Assembly (NCBI GenBank): GCA_016204355.1
Contig: JACQKT010000016.1
Location: forward strand, 1 to 45,268
Reading direction: 5' to 3'
Length of the DNA: 45,268 bases
DNA from: Candidatus Liptonbacteria bacterium
GTDB lineage: Bacteria; Patescibacteriota; Minisyncoccia; UBA6257; 2-01-FULL-56-20
This document shows, piece after piece, positions 29,744 to 45,194 of this stretch. Numbering within the stretch: position 1 is the first letter of the stretch; the number at the start of each line of letters is the position of its first letter. The position numbers and the translations under genes were made by a program. Under the pieces are notes generated by a model. It saw nothing but the letters and a program-made list of their open reading frames with translations, had not been told where the DNA came from and ran no database searches.

Positions 29744-30382
29744 TTATTTTTTCGAAACCGGCGCTATTGGCATTATCATTCCTCTGCCTCCGAACTTCGG
29801 CTCGCCTAGCCTTTTGTGCTCGACGGTGGTCATTTTTATGAATTCCTCGAGTTTTTGGAGCGCTCTCGGTCTGTTATACTTTTCGGCTCCCCTCAACCTC
29901 ATCATTATGTCGACGTTGTGGCCTTCCTCCAGGAACTTGTCCATCTGTCTGGCCTTTATCAGAAGATCGTTTTTGGCGGCCCGCACGCTTATTTGAACCT
30001 GTTTCAGCCCGACTGTTTTTTGGGCCTGCTTGGCTTTCTTCTCCGCCTTCTCCTGCATGTACCGGAACTTGTCGAAACTCATCAGGCGGGCAACGGGCGG
30101 CTTAGCGGTCGGGGATATTTCGATAAGGTCTATTCCTTCTCCCGGCTTTACCAATGCCAAGGCCTTCTCCCTCGGCATTACGCCGAGATTTTCTCCCTGG
30201 GCGCCGATGACCCGAAGTTCGGGCGCGGTTATTTCGTTGTTGATTCTTGGCTTTATAGGTTTATTGAAAACTTTTTCCTGTTTTGAGCGCCACGATATGT
30301 TAATTGTTGCCGGTGACTTTGTCAATCGAGCATATAAATTTTTTATGTGCTCGATTGATACTGAGCAGGGTCGAAGTATCAA
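29744..30382 (-). CDS. infC: Translation initiation factor IF-3 (true start probably an internal AUU/AUA codon)
   Basis: INNEITAPELRVIGAQGENLGVM..., and the IF3 C-domain VQISVRAAKNDLLIKARQMDKFLEEGHNVDIMMRLRG. The first ~25 codons of the track ORF cover a leader hairpin (30329-30362). Confidence 0.9.
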   Translation of the reverse strand: MILRPCSVSIEHIKNLYARLTKSPATINISWRSKQEKVFNKPIKPRINNEITAPELRVIGAQGENLGVMPREKALALVKPGEGIDLIEISPTAKPPVARLMSFDKFRYMQEKAEKKAKQAQKTVGLKQVQISVRAAKNDLLIKARQMDKFLEEGHNVDIMMRLRGAEKYNRPRALQKLEEFIKMTTVEHKRLGEPKFGGRGMIMPIAPVSKK

Positions 30383-30406
30383 AGTCCATAAATTAAGCGT
30401 ATTTAT

Positions 30407-30441
30407 AAAAAAATTGCCCCGAACAAATTACATGTCCGGGG
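30407..30441 (-). terminator. Rho-independent terminator of module B
   Basis: Minus strand: CCCCGGAC-ATGTAATTT-GTTCGGGG then CAATTTTTTT. The plus-strand block ATAAAAAAATTGCCCCGAAC matches the module A terminator at 18 of 20 positions. Confidence 0.75.
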
Positions 30442-30472
30442 ACTTGGTACTGCTAGGAGACGACCGAATGCT

Positions 30473-30694
30473 TCATGCTGCTTTCTTTGGCAGGAGGCCG
30501 GCTGCTTCCGCCGCTTCTCGCGCCGAATTCTTAGCGAACTGATACTCGTTATCCGTCAGGTATGCCTGGCATCCGGAGCCTGTCTTTCCGACGAACACCA
30601 GTCGGCCGCTGTGGCAGCCGAACGTTACTTCGACCGCGCCTACTCGCACGACCACTCTGCCGTTCATTCTGTCGATGGATATGTTATTCGGCAT
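30473..30694 (-). CDS. Module B small soluble protein (73 aa), hypothetical
   Basis: GAGGAGG SD 6 nt before the ATG at 30694. 11-nt overlap (ATGCCGAATAA) with the upstream membrane gene. MPNNISIDRMNGRVVVRVGAVEVTFGCHSGRLVFVGKTGSGC... Confidence 0.6.
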   Translation of the reverse strand: MPNNISIDRMNGRVVVRVGAVEVTFGCHSGRLVFVGKTGSGCQAYLTDNEYQFAKNSAREAAEAAGLLPKKAA

Positions 30695-30956
30695 TGTCAT
30701 CCTCCTCGCCAATCATGCCCTTGAACCAGGGTTCGAGCAGTTCACCCAGCTTCTTTTGGGCGAAGTAGTACGCAAGAACAGTGAGTCCGATACCGAATAC
30801 CAGTCTGACAGCGAGGTCGGCGACATTCGTATGCCAAAACCCGCTGACTGCGAGCGCGATGCCGACAAGCATCAACACGCACTGTATAACTAACTCCACC
30901 CGTTCCTCGAAATCGGGGATTTCGAGGAACCTCTTGCACGATTCAATCACTTTCAT
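30684..30956 (-). CDS. Module B small membrane protein (90 aa, 2 TM), hypothetical
   Basis: AAGGAG SD before the ATG at 30956. TM helices VELVIQCVLMLVGIALAVSGFW and LAVRLVFGIGLTVLAYYFA. Acidic tail EEDDNAE. Confidence 0.6.
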   Translation of the reverse strand: MKVIESCKRFLEIPDFEERVELVIQCVLMLVGIALAVSGFWHTNVADLAVRLVFGIGLTVLAYYFAQKKLGELLEPWFKGMIGEEDDNAE

Positions 30957-31026
30957 TTATTTTCTCCTTAGTTGGCAATATTGAAGCACGCTGTAACGCG
31001 TGCATTGGTAAGTTTCTACGCCCTCA

Positions 31027-31055
31027 AATATGGCAGATTTTAGGCGTTTTGTCAA
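31027..31055 (-). promoter_or_regulatory. Module B promoter
   Basis: Minus strand: TTGACA-17 nt-CATATT with TGc extended -10. It shares the GCAGATTTTA core with the module A promoter. Confidence 0.6.
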
Positions 31056-31082
31056 TACAAGCGCTATTTTCCTTATTTTTAT

Positions 31083-31124
31083 AAAAAAATCACCCCGAAC
31101 CTGTTTTTGCTGTTGGTTCGGGGG
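31083..31124 (-). terminator. Rho-independent terminator of module A
   Basis: Minus strand: CCCCGAACC-loop-GGTTCGGGG then TGATTTTTTT, starting 2 nt after the stop at 31126. Confidence 0.75.
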
Positions 31125-31125
31125 C

Positions 31126-31398
31126 TTACAGAAGCGTGGGCTGCATACGCTTCCGTTCTTCGGCCAGGGCGCGGTTTTTTCTGTGCTCGTCCATTATTTT
31201 GAGCGCCGTTTTGAAGGCCTTTTCATAGGCGGCGCCAGATATCCTCGTGTTGCGCCGTTCGGCGGTGTATTTTTCGACCCGGTGTTCGTTTTCCTTTCCA
31301 GTAAACACGAAAACGACGTAGACGTCCTCGACGAGAATGACTATCCGTCCCACCGGAAGCGGCGCGTGAACATCGATTACTTTGAGTTTAATGTCCAT
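31126..31398 (-). CDS. Module A small soluble protein (90 aa), hypothetical
   Basis: AAGGAGG SD 4 nt before the ATG at 31398. 11-nt overlap (ATGGACATTAA) with the upstream membrane gene. MDIKLKVIDVHAPLPVGRIVILVEDVYVVFVFTGKE..., with a basic helical C-terminal half. Confidence 0.6.
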   Translation of the reverse strand: MDIKLKVIDVHAPLPVGRIVILVEDVYVVFVFTGKENEHRVEKYTAERRNTRISGAAYEKAFKTALKIMDEHRKNRALAEERKRMQPTLL

Positions 31399-31663
31399 CG
31401 CGCCTCCTTCGTCCGCTTATTAAGCCGATGTTTATCAATAACGCGGCGGCGGAGATCACCACAAATGCGATGCCGATGGCGACGTAGGACGAAGTTGCAT
31501 TCCCCGCCAGCCCGAGAGATGCAACTATCAAAAGCACCAGCCCGAGTGAAAGCATCAGCGTCTCGATGCAAAAGTTCGCAAACTGGGATACAGGATGAAC
31601 AGGCTCAATCGGTTCCCGCCAAACCTTGTTTTCGTTGCCCTGCGTTGCGTTCTGCCCTCTCAC
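31388..31663 (-). CDS. Module A small membrane protein (91 aa, 2 TM), hypothetical
   Basis: GTG start with an AGGAAAGGA SD. TM helices TLMLSLGLVLLIVASLGLAG and YVAIGIAFVVISAAALLINIGLI. Basic tail GRRRRDGH. Confidence 0.55.
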   Translation of the reverse strand: MRGQNATQGNENKVWREPIEPVHPVSQFANFCIETLMLSLGLVLLIVASLGLAGNATSSYVAIGIAFVVISAAALLINIGLISGRRRRDGH

Positions 31664-31680
31664 GATTTTCCTTTCCTCAT

Positions 31681-31703
31681 AAAAACCCGCCTAAGCGCGC
31701 GGG
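31681..31703 (-). promoter_or_regulatory. Terminator-like hairpin inside the module A 5' leader (possible attenuator)
   Basis: Minus strand: CCCGC-GCGCTTAG-GCGGG followed by TTTTTAT, located between the predicted -10 and the SD. Confidence 0.45.
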
Positions 31704-31737
31704 ATATTCAAAAAAGTTGCCAAGTTACTGTGCTCTA

Positions 31738-31765
31738 AAAATAGCAGATTTTAAAGATTTAACAA
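31738..31765 (-). promoter_or_regulatory. Module A promoter
   Basis: Minus strand: TTGTTA-16 nt-TATTTT with TGc extended -10. Confidence 0.5.
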
Positions 31766-31777
31766 AAAACCCTCCTG

Positions 31778-31815
31778 TAAGGTCAGCGAGCTCCCTTAAG
31801 GTCAGCGAGCTCCCT
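31778..31815. repeat. Perfect 19-bp tandem direct repeat in a divergent promoter region
   Basis: TAAGGTCAGCGAGCTCCCT at 31778-31796 and again at 31797-31815. Confidence 0.9.
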
Positions 31816-31850
31816 TGTAGATAAATGATGGAAATTTTCCAAACGCAAAA

Positions 31851-31867: not shown

Positions 31868-32128
31868 ATGGACGCGTTAAAGAATAAGGAAGTGATACTC
31901 ATAGTCGTTGCGATAATAATTTTAGTGGTTGGCTATTTCGTTTATGCGTTGTATCCACGCGAGACGGCTCAAACCCCGACCGTACAAAGCCCGGCCGAGC
32001 AAAATCAGGCCGCAGCGGAAAATGTGGGATCAAGCGTGAATGACCAGCCGCTGGAAAACGCGCCGGACCTTAATCCCGTAAACAAAGCCAACCCGTTCAC
32101 GTCGGTCAAAACCAACCCTTTCGAATAA
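31868..32128 (+). CDS. Small N-terminally anchored membrane protein (86 aa)
   Basis: TM helix VILIVVAIIILVVGYFVYALY followed by a Pro/Gln/Asn-rich tail. Its stop lies 1 nt before the next ATG. Confidence 0.55.
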   Translation: MDALKNKEVILIVVAIIILVVGYFVYALYPRETAQTPTVQSPAEQNQAAAENVGSSVNDQPLENAPDLNPVNKANPFTSVKTNPFE

Positions 32129-32129
32129 A

Positions 32130-33596
32130 ATGAAAAAATATTTTCCGTTTTTAGCGCTGGCCCTGTTCGCGAGTGCCTCGACATTGGTAATCGGGCAAGC
32201 CCTTGCCCAGGAGGATAGAATTTCGTTTCCGGTCGCGGAGCTTGGAAATTGCGGGGACAAACAGGAATGCAAGACATATTGCGACGAGCCCGCGAATGCA
32301 GGCGCCTGCTTGGATTTTGCAGAGAAAAACAATCTGATGTCCAGAGAAGAAGCCGCGATGGCGCGCAAAATGATCTCGGGAAGCATAAAAGGACCAGGGG
32401 GATGCACGACGAAAGATAAATGTGAAACATACTGCAACGACATAAATAACATCGAAGAATGCGTCGCTTTCGCGGAACAAAATAATATTATGCCTGCGCA
32501 GGAGCTTGCCGAGGCGAGAAAAATCGCAAGCGCCATAAAGCGCGGAGTTAAGCCTCCCGCCTGTCGGAACAAAGCGGATTGCGACAATTACTGCGGCGCG
32601 CCGGAACACATGGAAGAGTGCATGAATTTCGCGCTCGAAGCCGGATTTATGAGCGAGGAGGAAAGAGCCGACGCCCAGAAAATGCTGACTGCGATAAAGA
32701 GCGGAGTTAAGCCGCCGGCCTGCCGCGGAAAAGAAGAATGTGATGCGTATTGCTCTCAAGACGCGAACATCCAGGAATGCGCCGACTTCGCGGTGGCTGC
32801 AGGATTCATTACGCAGAAAGAATATGAAATGATGAAAAGAACTGGCGGGCGCGGGCCCGGCGGATGCAAAGGCAGGGAAGAATGCGAGGCGTTCTGCAAT
32901 AATTCCGACAATCGGGAGGCGTGCTTCCAGTTCGGGAAAAAACACGGTCTTATCTCCGAAGAAGAGCTTAAAAAAATGGAAGAAGGAACCAGGATGTTCA
33001 TGGAAAATTTGAACAACGCGCCGCCGCAGGTTAAAGAATGCCTCGCCGCGGCGTTCGGAGACCTTTCAAACGTCCAGCCGTCGGAAGAAATAGGGCAGAA
33101 AATGAGAGAGTGTTTCGAAAAAGTCGGACCTTCGATGATGGGCGGACAATCGGGCAGTTCGGGCGTTCCCATGGGCGTTCCGCCGCAAGGTTTTTCGGGA
33201 GGAGCGACTGGCCAATTTACGGGTCCGGGCGGATGTACGACTCCGGAAGAATGCAAAACTTATTGCATGGCGCATCCCGCAGAATGCGGAATTCCTGCGG
33301 GCGGCGGGTTCTATCCTCCGCCTCCGAACATGATAGGCGTTCCTCCTCCCGGCGACTATCCGATGTCTCCGCTGTCCTCGGGAACATACCAAACGTATCC
33401 ATCTCCGGATGCCTACCAAATGCCCCCTTCGTCAGGAACCTATCAAATGCTTCCGCCTCCGGACGGCTACCAGACGTCTTCATATCCCGGCGATTATCAG
33501 GCGCCCCCGCCGTCAGCCGCGACATCCACGCCCACTTCTCTGATAAGTCCCGATTTATTGCTCGGCATTATCCTCAACTGGTGGAGAGTGTTTTGA
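32130..33596 (+). CDS. Secreted Cys-rich repeat protein with Pro/Tyr-rich tail and C-terminal hydrophobic anchor
   Basis: Signal peptide MKKYFPFLALALFASASTLVIGQALA. At least six copies of the module C-x5-C-x3-C-x7/8-C-x2-FA...(M/I)xxEE, then YQ(T/M)xPxP repeats, ending in LLLGIILNWWRVF. Confidence 0.75.
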   Translation: MKKYFPFLALALFASASTLVIGQALAQEDRISFPVAELGNCGDKQECKTYCDEPANAGACLDFAEKNNLMSREEAAMARKMISGSIKGPGGCTTKDKCETYCNDINNIEECVAFAEQNNIMPAQELAEARKIASAIKRGVKPPACRNKADCDNYCGAPEHMEECMNFALEAGFMSEEERADAQKMLTAIKSGVKPPACRGKEECDAYCSQDANIQECADFAVAAGFITQKEYEMMKRTGGRGPGGCKGREECEAFCNNSDNREACFQFGKKHGLISEEELKKMEEGTRMFMENLNNAPPQVKECLAAAFGDLSNVQPSEEIGQKMRECFEKVGPSMMGGQSGSSGVPMGVPPQGFSGGATGQFTGPGGCTTPEECKTYCMAHPAECGIPAGGGFYPPPPNMIGVPPPGDYPMSPLSSGTYQTYPSPDAYQMPPSSGTYQMLPPPDGYQTSSYPGDYQAPPPSAATSTPTSLISPDLLLGIILNWWRVF

Positions 33597-33652: not shown

Positions 33653-33976
33653 TGGTGGAGATGGGCGGAATTGAACCGCCGTCTAAAGATATCGTCACTG
33701 AATCATCTACGAGCGTAGCTCTAATAAATTAGAACAAGTTTGCTCCGCTTAATTTAGCCGATTGTCTCACGAAGCGAAAACATTCGGCGAGTTCCCTAAT
33801 ATAAGACCGGTTATCCGCCCAAGGAACACGAACGGACCGATCCTCCCGGGGTTACGCGTAAGCGAACGCAGGAGCTGCAACTCTTTGGTTGGCAGTTATG
33901 ATTTTTTGCCGATTTAACGTTTCGGCGAAACGGCTCGCCGGTTCAGGATTCATCTTTATCGAAGCCGATCATCCCC
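33653..33976 (-). ncRNA. ssrA: tmRNA (SsrA), CCA encoded
   Basis: Minus strand: the 5' end GGGGATGATCGGCTTCGAT... pairs with the 3' end ...GACGGCGGTTCAATTCCGCCCATCTCCACCA (tRNA-like T arm plus acceptor). The candidate tag reading frame GCC AAC CAA AGA GTT GCA GCT CCT GCG TTC GCT TAC GCG TAA gives ANQRVAAPAFAYA. Confidence 0.85.
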
Positions 33977-34072
33977 GGTCGCATTAAAGTACCACAAAAC
34001 CTGAAAAAAATCAAACGGCATACCCTTTCTGCTTTAATTGAACCATCTGTAAGAATAGGTTATTTTATAGTC

Positions 34073-41673: not shown

Positions 41674-43152
41674 TATAAGGAAATGCCGGAAGAAAAATCG
41701 TTCAATCTGCCGCAGGCTGAGGAAAAAACATTGGATTTTTGGAGGAAAAACAAGATTTTCGAGAAAAGTCTCGCGCTTAGGCAGGCCAGAAATAAGAAAC
41801 CCTTCGTTTTCTACGAGGGACCTCCGTATGCCAACGGCAAGCCTGGCATACACCATGTTTTGGCTAGGATTTACAAGGATATAATCCTTCGCTACAAATC
41901 CATGCGCGGGCATTACGTTCCGCGCCGGGCCGGATGGGACACGCACGGGTTGCCGGTTGAAATTGCCGCCGAAAAAGCGCTGGGTCTGAAATCCAAAAAA
42001 GACATAGAAAAATTCGGCATCGAGCGTTTCAACGAAGAAGCGAGAAAAGCGGTCTGGGTTTATAAGGAAGAATGGGAAAATCTCACGGAGAGAATAGGGT
42101 ATTGGCTCGACCTCAAAAACGCTTACATAACGTGCTCGAACGATTATATAGAAACGCTTTGGTGGATTCTTGCAAAGATTTGGAAGAGAAAACTTCTTTA
42201 TAAGGCGCACAAAGTCGTTCCGTGGTGTCCGCGTTGCGGAACGGCGCTTTCGGCGCACGAACTGGCGCAAGGATACAAGGAAGTCGACGACACGTCGGTA
42301 TACGCAAAATTCAAATTGAAGAAAGGACAAAAGATAGGAAAATTTACGACCGATGATAAGACATATATTCTTTCATGGACTACGACGCCGTGGACTTTGC
42401 CGGGCAACGTGGCACTGGCAGTCGGGGCCGACATAGATTACGCAGAAACCAATATCAACGGAGAAAAGTTAGTAGCTGCAAAAAATCTTTTCGAAAAAAT
42501 CGGTTTGCCTGCAAACGCCGAGAAACAATACAAAGGGAAAAATCTCGTCGGCTTGAAGTATCAGCAGCTCTTTGATGTGCAGAAACTGCAGAACGAAAAA
42601 TCGCACAAAATTTATTCAGCAGATTTCGTTACCACAGAAGACGGAACAGGAGTTGTTCATACAGCGGTCATGTACGGAGAAGATGACTACGAGCTCGGAA
42701 AAAAAGTCGGCCTGCCACAACATCACACGGTTGACGAAGAAGGGAAATTCACCAAAGAGGTAAAAGGATTCGCCGGTTCGCCCGTTAAGGCGAAGGAGAC
42801 GGAAGAAAAAATCATAAATTATCTGAAATCAAAAAACTTTTTGCTGAGAACTGAAAATTATACGCACGAATACCCGTTTTGCTGGCGGTGCGGCTCAGCG
42901 GTGATTTATTACGCGAGGACGTCATGGTTTATCGCAATGGGGAAACTGAGAAACGAATTGCTCAAATCGAACAAGACGATAAACTGGGTGCCGGCGCACG
43001 TAAAAGAAGGCCGTTTCGGAGAATGGCTCAGAGAGAAAAAAGACTGGAATCTGTCGCGTGAACGTTATTGGGGTGCGCCGATGCCAGTATGGGAATGCGC
43101 GAGGTGCGGAAAAACCGAGGTAGTAGAAAGTCTCGGCGAGTTGAAGAAAAAG

Positions 43153-43743
43153 ACCGTACGGAGGAACGAGTTTTTATTTTTGAGGCATGGTGAGGCCGAC
43201 CATAACGTCAAACATATGACCGGGCCGTCGAAAGACGCGAAAAAATACACCTCTCATCTTACTCTTAAAGGGAAAAAAGATATTGCAGACATCGCAAAAA
43301 AAATCACCAAAAGAAAAATAGATATAATCGTTTCTTCGCCTCTCACCAGAGCGCGCGAAACTTCAAAAATAGTTCAGAAAGCGACAAGAGCGAAGGTAAT
43401 CTATCACAAAGGGCTTATAGACATAAATCCCGGCGTATTTATGCTTAAGTCAGCAAAAGAGCACAGTTCTTATTTCAAAAGCGAAATCGACAAATTCGCA
43501 ATGGCGCCGCCCGAGGGAGAAAACAGGAACGAAACAAAGAAAAGAATGGCAAAGGTTTTCTCAGAGGTAAACTCCAAATTCAAAGGCAAAAGAATTTTGA
43601 TTGTCAGTCACGGCGAACCGTTGTGGCTGCTCAGGGGGGCGCTGGAGGGACTTTCCAACGAAAAAATTCTCGAAGCCCTTTATCCAAAGACTGGAGAACT
43701 CTACGAAATAAATACCGGTTCTTTGCCCATAGACGCTTCCGGA
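43153..43743 (+). other. Histidine-phosphatase (PGAM/cobC-like) domain inserted inside IleRS
   Basis: FLFLRHGEADHN (RHG motif, 43183-43191), VSSPLTRARET, and ILIVSHGEP (second catalytic His, 43606-43614). It is flanked by VWECARCGKTEVVESLGEL and NLDLHRPYADRV..CSGC, which are normally adjacent in IleRS. Confidence 0.75.
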
Positions 43744-44268
43744 AATCTCGATTTGCACCGTCCTTATGCCGACCGAGTGACACTGAACTGTTCAGGGTGC
43801 AAAGGAGAAATGAAAAGGATAAAAGAAGTCGCAGACGTCTGGTTCGATTCCGGCGCGATGCCTTTCGCACAAGTTCACTATCCGTTCGAGAATAAGGCGC
43901 TCATCGATAAAAAAACCATGTACCCTGCCGATTACATTTCGGAGGCGATGGACCAAACGCGCGGCTGGTTTTACACGCTCCTTTCTGTTGCTACGGCACT
44001 AGGATACGAAGCCCCATACAAAAACGTCATCTCGCTGGGGTTAATAAACGACAAGTTCGGACAAAAAATGTCGAAATCAAAGGGGAACATAGTCGAGCCG
44101 TGGGAGGTCATCAACAAATACGGAGCGGACGCGGTTCGTTGGTATTTTTATACCGCTACGCCGCCCGGCGAGCCGAAAAATTTCGATGAGAACGAAGTCA
44201 GCAAAGCATACCGCAAATTCCATCTGATTTTCTGGAACTCGGTTATGTTTTATAAGACGTATGCGGGG

Positions 44269-44293
44269 AAAATCAAAAATCAAAAATCAAAAG
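44269..44293 (+). repeat. AAAAATC heptanucleotide tandem repeat at the ileS frame break
   Basis: g-AAAATC-AAAAATC-AAAAATC-AAAAG: two perfect and two partial units. Confidence 0.85.
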
Positions 44294-45194
44294 TAACAAC
44301 ATACTGGACAAATGGATTTTGGCGCGGCTGGGAGAAACCGTAGCCGAAGTTACCGAAAACCTTGAAAAATATCAAGTAAGAGAATCCGCGATTTCTATCG
44401 AAAGACTTTTGGACGATCTGTCCCGTTGGTACATCAGGCGCTCGAGACGGAGATTTTCGGCAGTTTTCAAAGGCGGAGCCGGCGGCGGGAGAGAACACAC
44501 CGAAGCCTCGCAGACACTGGGCATGGTGCTTTCAGAGATGAATAAACTTATGGCCCCTTTCGTGCCGTTTTTGAGCGAAGCTGTTTACAGGGAACTCGGA
44601 GCAAAAAAAGAAGAATCGGTCCATCTGACAAATTGGCCAAGCGTCGGGAAATCGCAAATCATAAATCGCTCATCGCTCATCGATGGCATGGCGGATATCA
44701 GAAGAATAGCAAGTTCGGCGCTGGCGAAGCGCGCGGAGATCGGAATAAAAGTGCGGCAGCCGCTCGCGGAGCTTCGTATAAAGGATCAATCATCAATCAT
44801 CAAGAAAAACAAGGAATTGTTGGAGATTTTGAAAGACGAAGTCAATGTTAAAAAAATAACTTTCGGGGCGAAAATTTCTGGCGACATCGAATTCGACACG
44901 GTTATAACTCCGGAACTTAAAAAAGAGGGAACCATCAGAGAACTCATCAGAACCGTTCAGGAACTTCGCCAGGAGGCCGGGCTGAAGCCCGGAGACAGCA
45001 TAGATTTGATGCTCGATTTGCCTGCGGAAATAAAATCAGCGGTATCGAGTAACGAAAAGTTTTTGAAATCGGAAGTCGGAGCGAAAAGTTTGGCTTACAA
45101 AAAATCAGGAAAATTTTTGGCCGAAGCGGAAACGAAAATCGATAATCTGAAGATTCGGATAGGAGTGAAAAAAGCGAAATAAAAAGTATCTCCA

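Follow-up and report, generated by a model that had tools for sequence, protein, structure and literature searches.

The contig JACQKT010000016.1 of Candidatus Liptonbacteria bacterium (assembly GCA_016204355.1), analysed here over its full stretch of 45,268 nucleotides and referred to below as the window, belongs to a patescibacterial, Paceibacterota-like chromosome. Next to its infC gene, four small open reading frames (ORFs) on the minus strand form two tandem units, A1/A2 and B1/B2. In each unit, a gene for a membrane protein with two transmembrane (TM) helices is followed by a gene for a small soluble protein, the start of which lies within the end of the membrane gene. An initial annotation of this DNA had proposed a duplicated and diverged two-gene system, in which a small membrane protein is coupled in translation to a partner in the cytosol; protein profiles, gene context and shared non-coding blocks uphold this proposal. 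The module is a genuine, previously undescribed and clade-specific two-gene system, duplicated in this genome.

Anatomy of the two units

All four ORFs were located where the initial annotation had placed them, together with the 11-nt stop/start overlaps of both units (ATGGACATTAA and ATGCCGAATAA) and the Shine-Dalgarno sites embedded in the final codons of the membrane genes (AAGGAGG at 31403-31409 within A1, for A2; GAGGAGG at 30701-30707 within B1, for B2). Hydrophobicity likewise assigns two TM helices to both A1 and B1. Among all ORF pairs of the window that overlap by 11 nt in the six frames, the combination of a two-TM protein with a soluble one is unique to A1/A2 and B1/B2.

Each unit has, as predicted, a promoter with an extended -10 box and a terminator of its own (Table 1). 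The promoter core of unit A, AAAATCTGCTATTTT, was recovered as an exact match by pattern search. The terminator blocks of the two units are identical at 21 of 23 positions, in agreement with the paralogy attributed to them, and the promoter cores at 15 of 17. Both shared motifs occur at two sites each and nowhere else in the 45 kb.

Table 1. Features of the two tandem units, in the order of transcription (window positions).
Feature	Position	Strand	Description
Tandem repeat, 19 nt	31772-31809	-	AGGGAGCTCGCTGACCTTA x2, directly upstream of the unit A promoter
Unit A promoter	31738-31765	-	-35 TTGTTA, 16-nt spacer with AAAATC, TGC-extended -10 TATTTT
Unit A leader hairpin	31686-31703	-	CCCGC-GCGCUUAG-GCGGG, then U5; 22 nt ahead of GUG
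A1	31388-31663	-	91-aa membrane protein with two helices, starting at GTG; also a gene call on independent assemblies
A2	31126-31398	-	90-aa soluble protein of the beta4-alpha family, divergent; 11-nt overlap of its ATG with the A1 stop
Unit A intrinsic terminator	31083-31123	-	9-bp stem CCCCGAACC/GGUUCGGGG, 13-nt loop, U7; includes the shared 23-nt block
Unit B promoter	31027-31055	-	TTGACA, 17-nt spacer, TG-extended CATATT
Unit B leader hairpin	30986-31003	-	GCACGC-GUUACA-GCGUGC; 29 nt ahead of AUG
B1	30684-30956	-	90-aa two-helix membrane protein, group I
B2	30473-30694	-	73-aa soluble beta4-alpha protein; ATG overlaps the B1 stop by 11 nt
Unit B intrinsic terminator	30407-30441	-	9-bp stem, then U7

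Coding evidence

A codon-usage model was trained on 14 confident genes of the window, and scores per codon were compared over the six frames. For A1, A2, B1 and B2 alike the annotated frame is the best of the six, with +0.13 to +0.37 per codon, the references infC and rpmI scoring +0.42 and +0.06. The plus-strand ORF at 31030-31824 (264 aa), which the initial annotation had singled out as the competing frame, scores -0.29 as an off-frame reading does and shows no coding signal.

The same four genes are called on independent assemblies of the same population. Between close pairs of relatives, dN/dS (the ratio of nonsynonymous to synonymous substitution rates) lies within 0.05-0.31 in the soluble gene and within 0.18-0.24 in the membrane gene, and both genes of the module are under purifying selection. 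The four ORFs have a GC content of 52-57% versus 48% in reference genes, and of 62-66% versus 55% at third codon positions (GC3). The GC-rich character ascribed to the region thus holds for the ORFs, to a modest degree, but no enrichment is visible at 1-kb resolution.

The soluble partner family

BLASTP detects no similarity between A1 and B1 or between A2 and B2. A leave-one-out profile of the soluble family, built without A2 and B2 and run against the 332 ORFs of the window, nevertheless retrieves B2 (E=2e-10) and A2 (E=0.003) ahead of the next ORF (E=0.5), and hhalign aligns A2 gap-free with the core soluble family (E=7e-4). B2 is a clear member of this family and A2 a distant one. The AlphaFold model of B2, with a predicted local distance difference test score (pLDDT) of 84, consists of four antiparallel strands followed by a C-terminal helix; that of A2 (pLDDT 79.5) has the same beta4-alpha order, the family alignment used as input making it partly dependent evidence. 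The motif VFV..GK, on which a resemblance of the two soluble proteins had been based, pairs the third strand of A2 with the fourth strand of B2 and so is out of register with the profile alignment and the predicted structures.

On the membrane side, B1 is 41% identical to its counterpart at the related locus L003 (E=1.5e-10), is connected to the L003 and L022 membrane proteins at E=1e-12 to 4e-14 and has at the start of its second TM helix the motif D-x-A-x-R-x-x-F-G, typical of what we call group I below. The links of A1 are weak, at E=1e-4 to L015 when 14 sequences made up the database and at E=0.008 to the L017 protein. Units A and B are best read as diverged copies in tandem, in view of the profile, hhalign and fold matches and of the non-coding blocks that they share; the paralogy originally claimed draws, for A2/B2, on the profile, on hhalign and on the predicted fold, and A1 is placed mainly by its context. 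A2 and B2 both match the soluble profile, and both units present an overlapping upstream two-TM ORF, an extended -10 promoter, an AAAATC spacer, a leader hairpin and their own terminator.

The soluble partners, at about 75 residues, are basic proteins whose four strands are predicted to form a meander ahead of the helix, and all members have a net positive charge, from +2 to +6. The proteins end in -AA in 12 of 14 cases (P0002-P0015; for instance KKAA, RRAA or RQAA), the exceptions being A2 and P0007, and this terminus may be a degradation or recognition signal.

Scans of the window proteins and their relatives against Pfam, NCBIfam, PHROG and PADLOC gave no significant match, the top PADLOC scores (CBASS 2TM effector, E=0.05; Csx18, E=0.1) being at chance level. 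The best match of the soluble family in a profile search of PDB sequences was S18, at E=1.1. Foldseek produced nothing at E<0.01 for B2 against PDB and viral/BFVD structures or for A2 against PDB; matches to RelE/HigB had TM-scores of 0.37-0.44 and E>0.3. The first assessment, in which no family was recognised, is therefore confirmed across these resources, and the Pfam and NCBIfam scans yielded no housekeeping family, a match to which the initial annotation would have counted against itself. A literature search for a described equivalent in Patescibacteria gave nothing relevant.

Distribution and genomic slot

As single queries in a word-index search of 5.8 billion proteins, A2 and B2 returned only themselves. 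Relatives were gathered through the synteny of IF3 and then by alignment searches with the soluble proteins. An alignment of five of these led to 12 proteins, 1.84 billion cluster representatives, searched exhaustively with a profile, contributed no more than P0013, P0015 and the weak relative P0019, and a metagenome scan with the core alignment found again only the L003, L004 and L015 populations. The soluble family amounts to about 15 clusters among 15 billion proteins.

The nearest species by IF3 identity (L003 90%, L004 83%, L005 75%) have one module each, lying downstream of a transfer-messenger RNA (tmRNA) gene in divergent orientation and immediately upstream of infC, and the module is absent from eight more distant loci (IF3 <=70%). 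In total, 13 distinct modules were found, all in close Paceibacterota relatives and usually between ssrA, the tmRNA gene, and infC. In every recovered context, a small overlapping ORF with two hydrophobic helices precedes the soluble gene, and infC is usually the next gene. Conservation of the pairing in related genomes, on which the initial annotation had staked its proposal, is thus present in these 13 modules. The overlap between the two genes measures 8, 11, 14 or 19 nt over the family. An overlap of exactly 11 nt was accordingly rejected as a family signature.

The weak relative P0019 (E=5e-4) is encoded at L024 6001-6332, in a different genus and context. Its gene is followed, with a 4-nt overlap, by that of a 33-aa single-helix peptide, a soluble-then-membrane arrangement that is the reverse of the module order.

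At L022 2780-3190, a solo 86-aa two-TM gene with its own promoter, leader hairpin (GCGC-TTAAAT-GCGC) and terminator stands directly upstream of a complete B1-like (group I) module. Its product ends in KKKAAA like the soluble partners, and this unit may derive from a module whose soluble gene has largely disappeared.

Exchange of the membrane cassette

The membrane proteins of the family have 74-125 residues and two TM helices. Over 14 of them, the N-termini have 30 lysines and arginines, the loops 11 and the C-termini 67; because of this positive-inside distribution, the predicted topology is N-in/C-in, which would leave only a mostly acidic loop of 5-24 residues outside. Two groups can be distinguished, group I (B1, L003, L015, L020 and L022) and group II (L004, L016, L019, L021 and L023, with L005 as a distant member), and A1 possibly makes up a third type together with L017. 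Acidic motifs in the outward loop differ between the groups, group I having HxDN(L/I)xD and group II (I/V)D(A/S)T.

Similarity of the soluble proteins hardly predicts that of the membrane proteins (Spearman rho 0.19 over all pairs). L004 and L015 share 84% identity in the soluble protein and 29% in the membrane protein, L017 and L021 share 89% and 24%, and L021 and L023 show the opposite, with 44% and 70%. A nucleotide comparison of L004 with L015 gives 81-89% identity for tmRNA, promoter, soluble gene with 3' untranslated region (3'UTR) and infC, and no similarity over the leader and the membrane ORF. Between genomes in general, promoter, soluble gene, 3'UTR and flanks keep 80-89% identity. 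The point at which blastn similarity restarts is precisely the ATG of the soluble gene in three independent pairs, while between L017 and L019 the entire leader is kept and the ORF alone is replaced. By these comparisons, the soluble gene and the RNA flanks are the constant part of the module, and the membrane ORF behaves as an exchangeable cassette of at least two, probably three, unrelated types. It follows from this mosaic that the partners do not co-evolve. The tandem of the window combines a group I copy (B1) with the divergent A1 type, and B2 is only 32% identical to its L003 counterpart although the IF3 proteins are 90% identical.

A divergence in charge had also been pointed out between the tails of the membrane proteins, RRRRDGH in A1 and EEDDNAE in B1. 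The two tails differ because the same purine-rich Shine-Dalgarno sequence is read in different frames, as AGG-AGG in A1 and GAG-GAG in B1, and the difference is, on this reading of the codons, a by-product with no adaptation behind it. It is an example of a coding tail whose charge is set by the Shine-Dalgarno site within it.

RNA elements

The leader of the modules is about 50-75 nt long. A GC-rich hairpin of 5-8 bp is present in 13 of 13 leaders, 19-31 nt before the start codon, and 12 of the 13 hairpins beat 95% or more of their dinucleotide shuffles, with a mean z of -2.6. The stems are diverse (CCCGC/GCGGG, GCACGC/GCGUGC, GGCGGU/AUCGCC, GGGCA/UGCCC and others); since their sequences vary so widely, structure is what the leader conserves. 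The hairpins described by the initial annotation were found at both units, but the U-rich tract said to accompany them follows in some family modules only. As these are a minority, a role of the leader as a transcription attenuator was not adopted.

Most modules have in their 3'UTR a hairpin GGAGC..GCUCC, of which L020 has the compensatory variant GGAGU/ACUCC. Between this hairpin and the terminator stands a block CUCCxCCUUAC / CUCCUCUUCA, which resembles the anti-Shine-Dalgarno end of 16S rRNA. Examples are found at L004 5629-5712, L017 1420-1508 and window 30407-30472; in the latter, the 3'UTR of unit B, only CUCCUAGCAG is retained of the block, and unit A is without it. The 19-nt repeat upstream of unit A resembles the conserved 3'UTR block GGAGCT..ACCTTACGAGGGT of the L016, L017, L019 and L023 modules and may be the relic of a lost third module.

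The shared promoter core noted at the outset is real in that 15 of 17 positions match. It is however mostly ordinary consensus, because its generalised pattern gave 111 matches in unrelated viral contigs, none of them with the module family. Being largely a generic strong-promoter consensus, in which only the AAAATC spacer is specific, the core was rejected as a probe for the family.

In L016, an HTH_92 gene (556-1000) lies between the module and infC and is preceded by a copy of the module promoter core, ACAAAATCTGCTTATTATAG.

Neighbouring features of the window

The genes around the units are infC, rpmI, rplT, ssrA and that of a Cys-rich secreted protein. The units adjoin infC on one side and, on the other, a divergently transcribed pair encoding an 86-aa membrane protein and the 488-aa Cys-rich secreted protein. 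This pair occupies 31868-33596, between the 3' end of ssrA and unit A, and has no significant family match. The tmRNA gene of the window (33653-34014) is inverted with respect to L003, L004, L005 and L022: it aligns plus/plus with them, and the flanking blocks align plus/minus. The content of the neighbourhood of the ssrA 3' end differs in every relative, so that this region is a hot spot of rearrangement or insertion.

Upstream of infC, an inverted repeat with 17-nt arms (30322-30385, minus strand) overlaps the -35 box of infC, and L004 has a perfect palindrome of different sequence at the equivalent place. The repeat of the window adjoins a hairpin, TTGATAC-TTCGACCCTGCTCAG-TATCAA. Of its loop motif, TTCGACNNTGCTCAG, the window has a single copy and L003 has three, each of them upstream of infC. 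Repeat and hairpin may be a regulatory element of the infC-rpmI-rplT operon.

Farther away, at 41683-44343 on the plus strand, the window encodes an 886-aa class I aminoacyl-tRNA synthetase of the LeuRS-like kind, with a histidine-phosphatase domain (His_Phos_1, residues 498-664, E=1.5e-28) inserted between synthetase segments.

Possible role of the module

Anatomy, conservation and mosaic of the module are observed; from these we infer everything that concerns its function. Our favoured reading, to which we give a probability of about one in three, is that a constant cytosolic subunit works with an exchangeable, non-toxic membrane hairpin in a task that could be envelope-protective, immunity-like or sensing. 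Each unit would be transcribed from its near-consensus extended -10 promoter through the leader, the membrane gene and the overlapping soluble gene, up to its own terminator. Ribosomes that end the membrane ORF at the membrane would re-initiate on the soluble partner, so that synthesis of the constant subunit would be confined to the time and place of hairpin synthesis, in a ratio of at most 1:1. The partner could then dock in a generic manner on the cytosolic face of the hairpin, through the juxtamembrane tail or the lipid surface. Such a pair would be a constitutively expressed envelope device whose specificity is supplied by the variable hairpin, and not a poison with its antidote.

This reading draws on codon usage, dN/dS, the gene calls on independent assemblies and the 13 conserved pairings, and on the presence of the module at the ssrA-infC slot in 3 of 3 nearest species and 0 of 8 more distant loci. 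It draws further on the discordance between constant part and cassette, on the positive-inside topology and the basic partners, on the shared predicted fold, on the leader hairpin and, by analogy, on the bPH_2 genes of the outgroups. The near-consensus promoter, a partner with no recognisable repressor domain and the dependence of its translation on the membrane gene all argue against toxicity.

Several points weigh on the other side. Binding between the partners is itself putative, and the searches gave neither a sequence or profile similarity to bPH_2 proteins (hhalign E=0.35-0.73) nor a Foldseek match at E<0.01. Cassette exchange, tandem copies of different types and a possible relic copy are also traits of conflict systems, as are the raised GC3 and a very fast divergence (32% for B2 against 90% for IF3, in the comparison with L003). 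The -AA ending is a candidate degradation signal of the sort that labile antitoxins have, by analogy with ClpXP degrons.

These traits would suit a second and somewhat doubtful explanation, close to the toxin-antitoxin, holin/antiholin or abortive-infection system first guessed at, in which a freed two-TM protein damages or depolarises the membrane and the soluble partner, possibly unstable itself, holds it in check. The small overlapping two-gene unit with its own promoter and terminator has the build of such systems; copies of different membrane types stand in tandem in the window, and a solo unit stands beside a full module in L022; cassettes are exchanged and diverge fast, GC3 exceeds the genome average, the units adjoin ssrA, where gene content varies among relatives, and 12 of 14 partners end in -AA. 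The charged cytosolic C-terminal tail is also reminiscent of class II holins. However, no toxin-antitoxin, holin, PHROG or PADLOC model matches (the best, the CBASS 2TM effector, remains at E=0.05), and endolysin or prophage context is missing. The module keeps one chromosomal slot in all close relatives, is absent from the viral contigs examined and counts about 15 clusters worldwide. No DNA-binding domain is recognisable in the partner, whose translation comes after, and depends on, that of the supposed toxin, and soluble proteins 84-89% identical are found with unrelated membrane proteins, that is, without co-evolution.

Against a classical toxin-antitoxin system stand the fixed slot, the missing mobile or viral context, the membrane-first coupling and, most heavily, the absence of co-evolution, and the first guess has lost weight with the mismatched partners and the empty profile searches. 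It is because of the fixed locus, the absence of a toxin domain, the near-consensus promoter, the membrane-first order and the lack of co-evolution that a constant subunit with exchangeable hairpins is ranked above it.

A bolder joint claim, improbable as a whole, would have the module as a chromosomally fixed, cassette-swapping one, in which the constant basic protein controls unrelated two-helix cassettes placed between conserved flanks. Control would be exerted through the mRNA flanks or through a generic membrane-proximal feature, and the whole would be a plug-in effector/immunity platform, specific to episymbiotic Patescibacteria, that replaced the bPH_2 gene seen upstream of infC in the more distant relatives sampled.

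Still less probable is an RNA-directed system similar to type V toxin-antitoxins, in which the partner recognises the mRNA flanks, be it the 5' hairpin or the 3'UTR GGAGC..GCUCC / CUCCxCCUUAC block, and sets the translation or stability of any membrane cassette between them. It would explain why promoter and leader, soluble gene and 3'UTR are conserved jointly while the membrane ORF is freely replaced; all partners are basic, and the leader and 3'UTR hairpins are conserved, with compensatory changes such as GGAGC/GCUCC versus GGAGU/ACUCC. Yet leader stems differ even at 84-87% soluble identity, which makes sequence-specific recognition unlikely, and conservation of the 3'UTR is perhaps mere linkage to the soluble gene and the terminator. 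Neither GhoS nor GhoT appears among the Pfam matches reported up to E=10, and Foldseek recognised no RNA-binding fold.

An equally slight chance is given to a surface-variation or compatibility locus, in which selection would act on the outward loop through recognition by phages, host cells or neighbours of an episymbiont. Balancing selection would maintain the types, and recombination via the conserved flanks would swap them. Discrete membrane types are indeed shared across genetic backgrounds, purifying selection acts within a type, and the conserved acidic motifs specific to each group sit in the outward loop. But a loop of 5-24 residues is a tiny target, the whole ORF is replaced instead of the loop alone, and the coupled soluble partner is left unexplained.

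That the ORFs are no genes at all, only chance frames or the shadow of the plus-strand ORF 31030-31824, is a reading to which the want of close orthologues for A1 and A2 gives some colour but which is already contradicted by codon usage that supports the annotated frames and rejects the plus-strand ORF, by a conserved family with dN/dS far under 1, by confident fold predictions for B2 and A2 and by the matched promoter, Shine-Dalgarno site and terminator of each unit. We thus rank the constant subunit first, the effector with its neutraliser second, RNA direction and surface variation level with each other in third place, and the absence of genes last by far.

Genomes of the Candidate Phyla Radiation are rich in small unannotated genes, very few of which come with an experimental handle. 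The present locus offers three: a two-protein family of confident fold, conserved RNA elements in leader and 3'UTR, and natural swaps of the membrane hairpin. If an effector/immunity platform with a generic controller were true, its organisation would be independent of partner co-evolution. As a benign envelope complex, the module would still serve as a clade marker adjoining infC. Being so narrowly distributed, with about 15 clusters in 15 billion proteins, it is of limited general importance.

Comparison with known systems

At four outgroup loci, a two-TM plus bPH_2 (PF03703) gene is located directly upstream of infC on the opposite strand (L008 5275-5877, L009 5204-5779, L011 1689-2372 and L013 4070-4717, all minus), with a tmRNA gene near it in three of them (L008, L009 and L011). 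Proteins of the YdbS/YdbT type are alike in joining two N-terminal TM helices to a beta-rich cytosolic domain (~78 residues) with a helix at its end. They differ from the module, which has a four-strand fold and no full PH sandwich, and which consists of two overlapping ORFs on the other strand with an exchangeable membrane part. No bPH_2 match was given by hmmscan, hhalign against the outgroup proteins stayed at E=0.35 and 0.73, and no bPH structure figured in the Foldseek results; tblastn found no bPH_2 homologue in the window or in nine of the other loci devoid of an annotated bPH_2 gene. The idea of a split bPH_2 gene was rejected by hhalign. The outgroup gene may thus be seen as an analogy, or possibly as what the module displaced, and no homology is claimed. 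One study implicates such PH-domain proteins in transporting a leaderless bacteriocin (PMC8657885), and ydbS/ydbT appear in a study that defined the Bacillus sigma-W regulon (PMC3498285).

The type V pair GhoT/GhoS also brings together a small two-helix membrane protein and a small soluble protein in one operon, and it is a precedent for a partner that acts on mRNA rather than on protein (PMC4010927). Its gene order is reversed and there is no homology; the module is predicted to have neither a nuclease nor a ferredoxin-like fold, and its locus is fixed and vertically inherited. Membership in type V finds no support in a GhoS or GhoT model (Pfam up to E=10) or in the fold.

Type II systems of the toxin-first kind (HigBA or MqsRA style) are, like the module, small autonomous operons of two overlapping genes. 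Here, in contrast, the partner is without a DNA-binding antitoxin domain, the "toxin" would be a membrane hairpin, the partners do not co-evolve and the module is neither mobile nor patchy. Pfam, NCBIfam and PADLOC gave no match to toxin (RelE/ParE, MazF, PIN, HipA) or antitoxin (RHH/HTH/AbrB) superfamilies, and the co-evolution characteristic of type II is not seen, soluble identities of 84-89% going with membrane identities of 23-29% (rho 0.19). As to type I, there is no promoter-like plus-strand site inside the units and no Rfam match, and the proteins are larger than typical type I toxins. No PADLOC model of a defence system matched significantly.

Class II holins and pinholins have 70-100 residues, two helices, an N-in/C-in topology and a charged cytosolic C-terminal tail, just as the membrane proteins of the module. 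The differences from holin/antiholin pairs are that the partner is a separate soluble protein instead of an N-terminally extended isoform and that the tail charge is largely the Shine-Dalgarno sequence; Pfam and PHROG gave no holin match, and no linkage to an endolysin was found.

The agr and com pherotype loci, finally, are comparable for their evolutionary pattern only, the module being without peptide signal, kinase or processing gene. In that pattern, the likeness extends to a hypervariable segment of discrete types, set between conserved flanks and incongruent with the phylogeny of these flanks.

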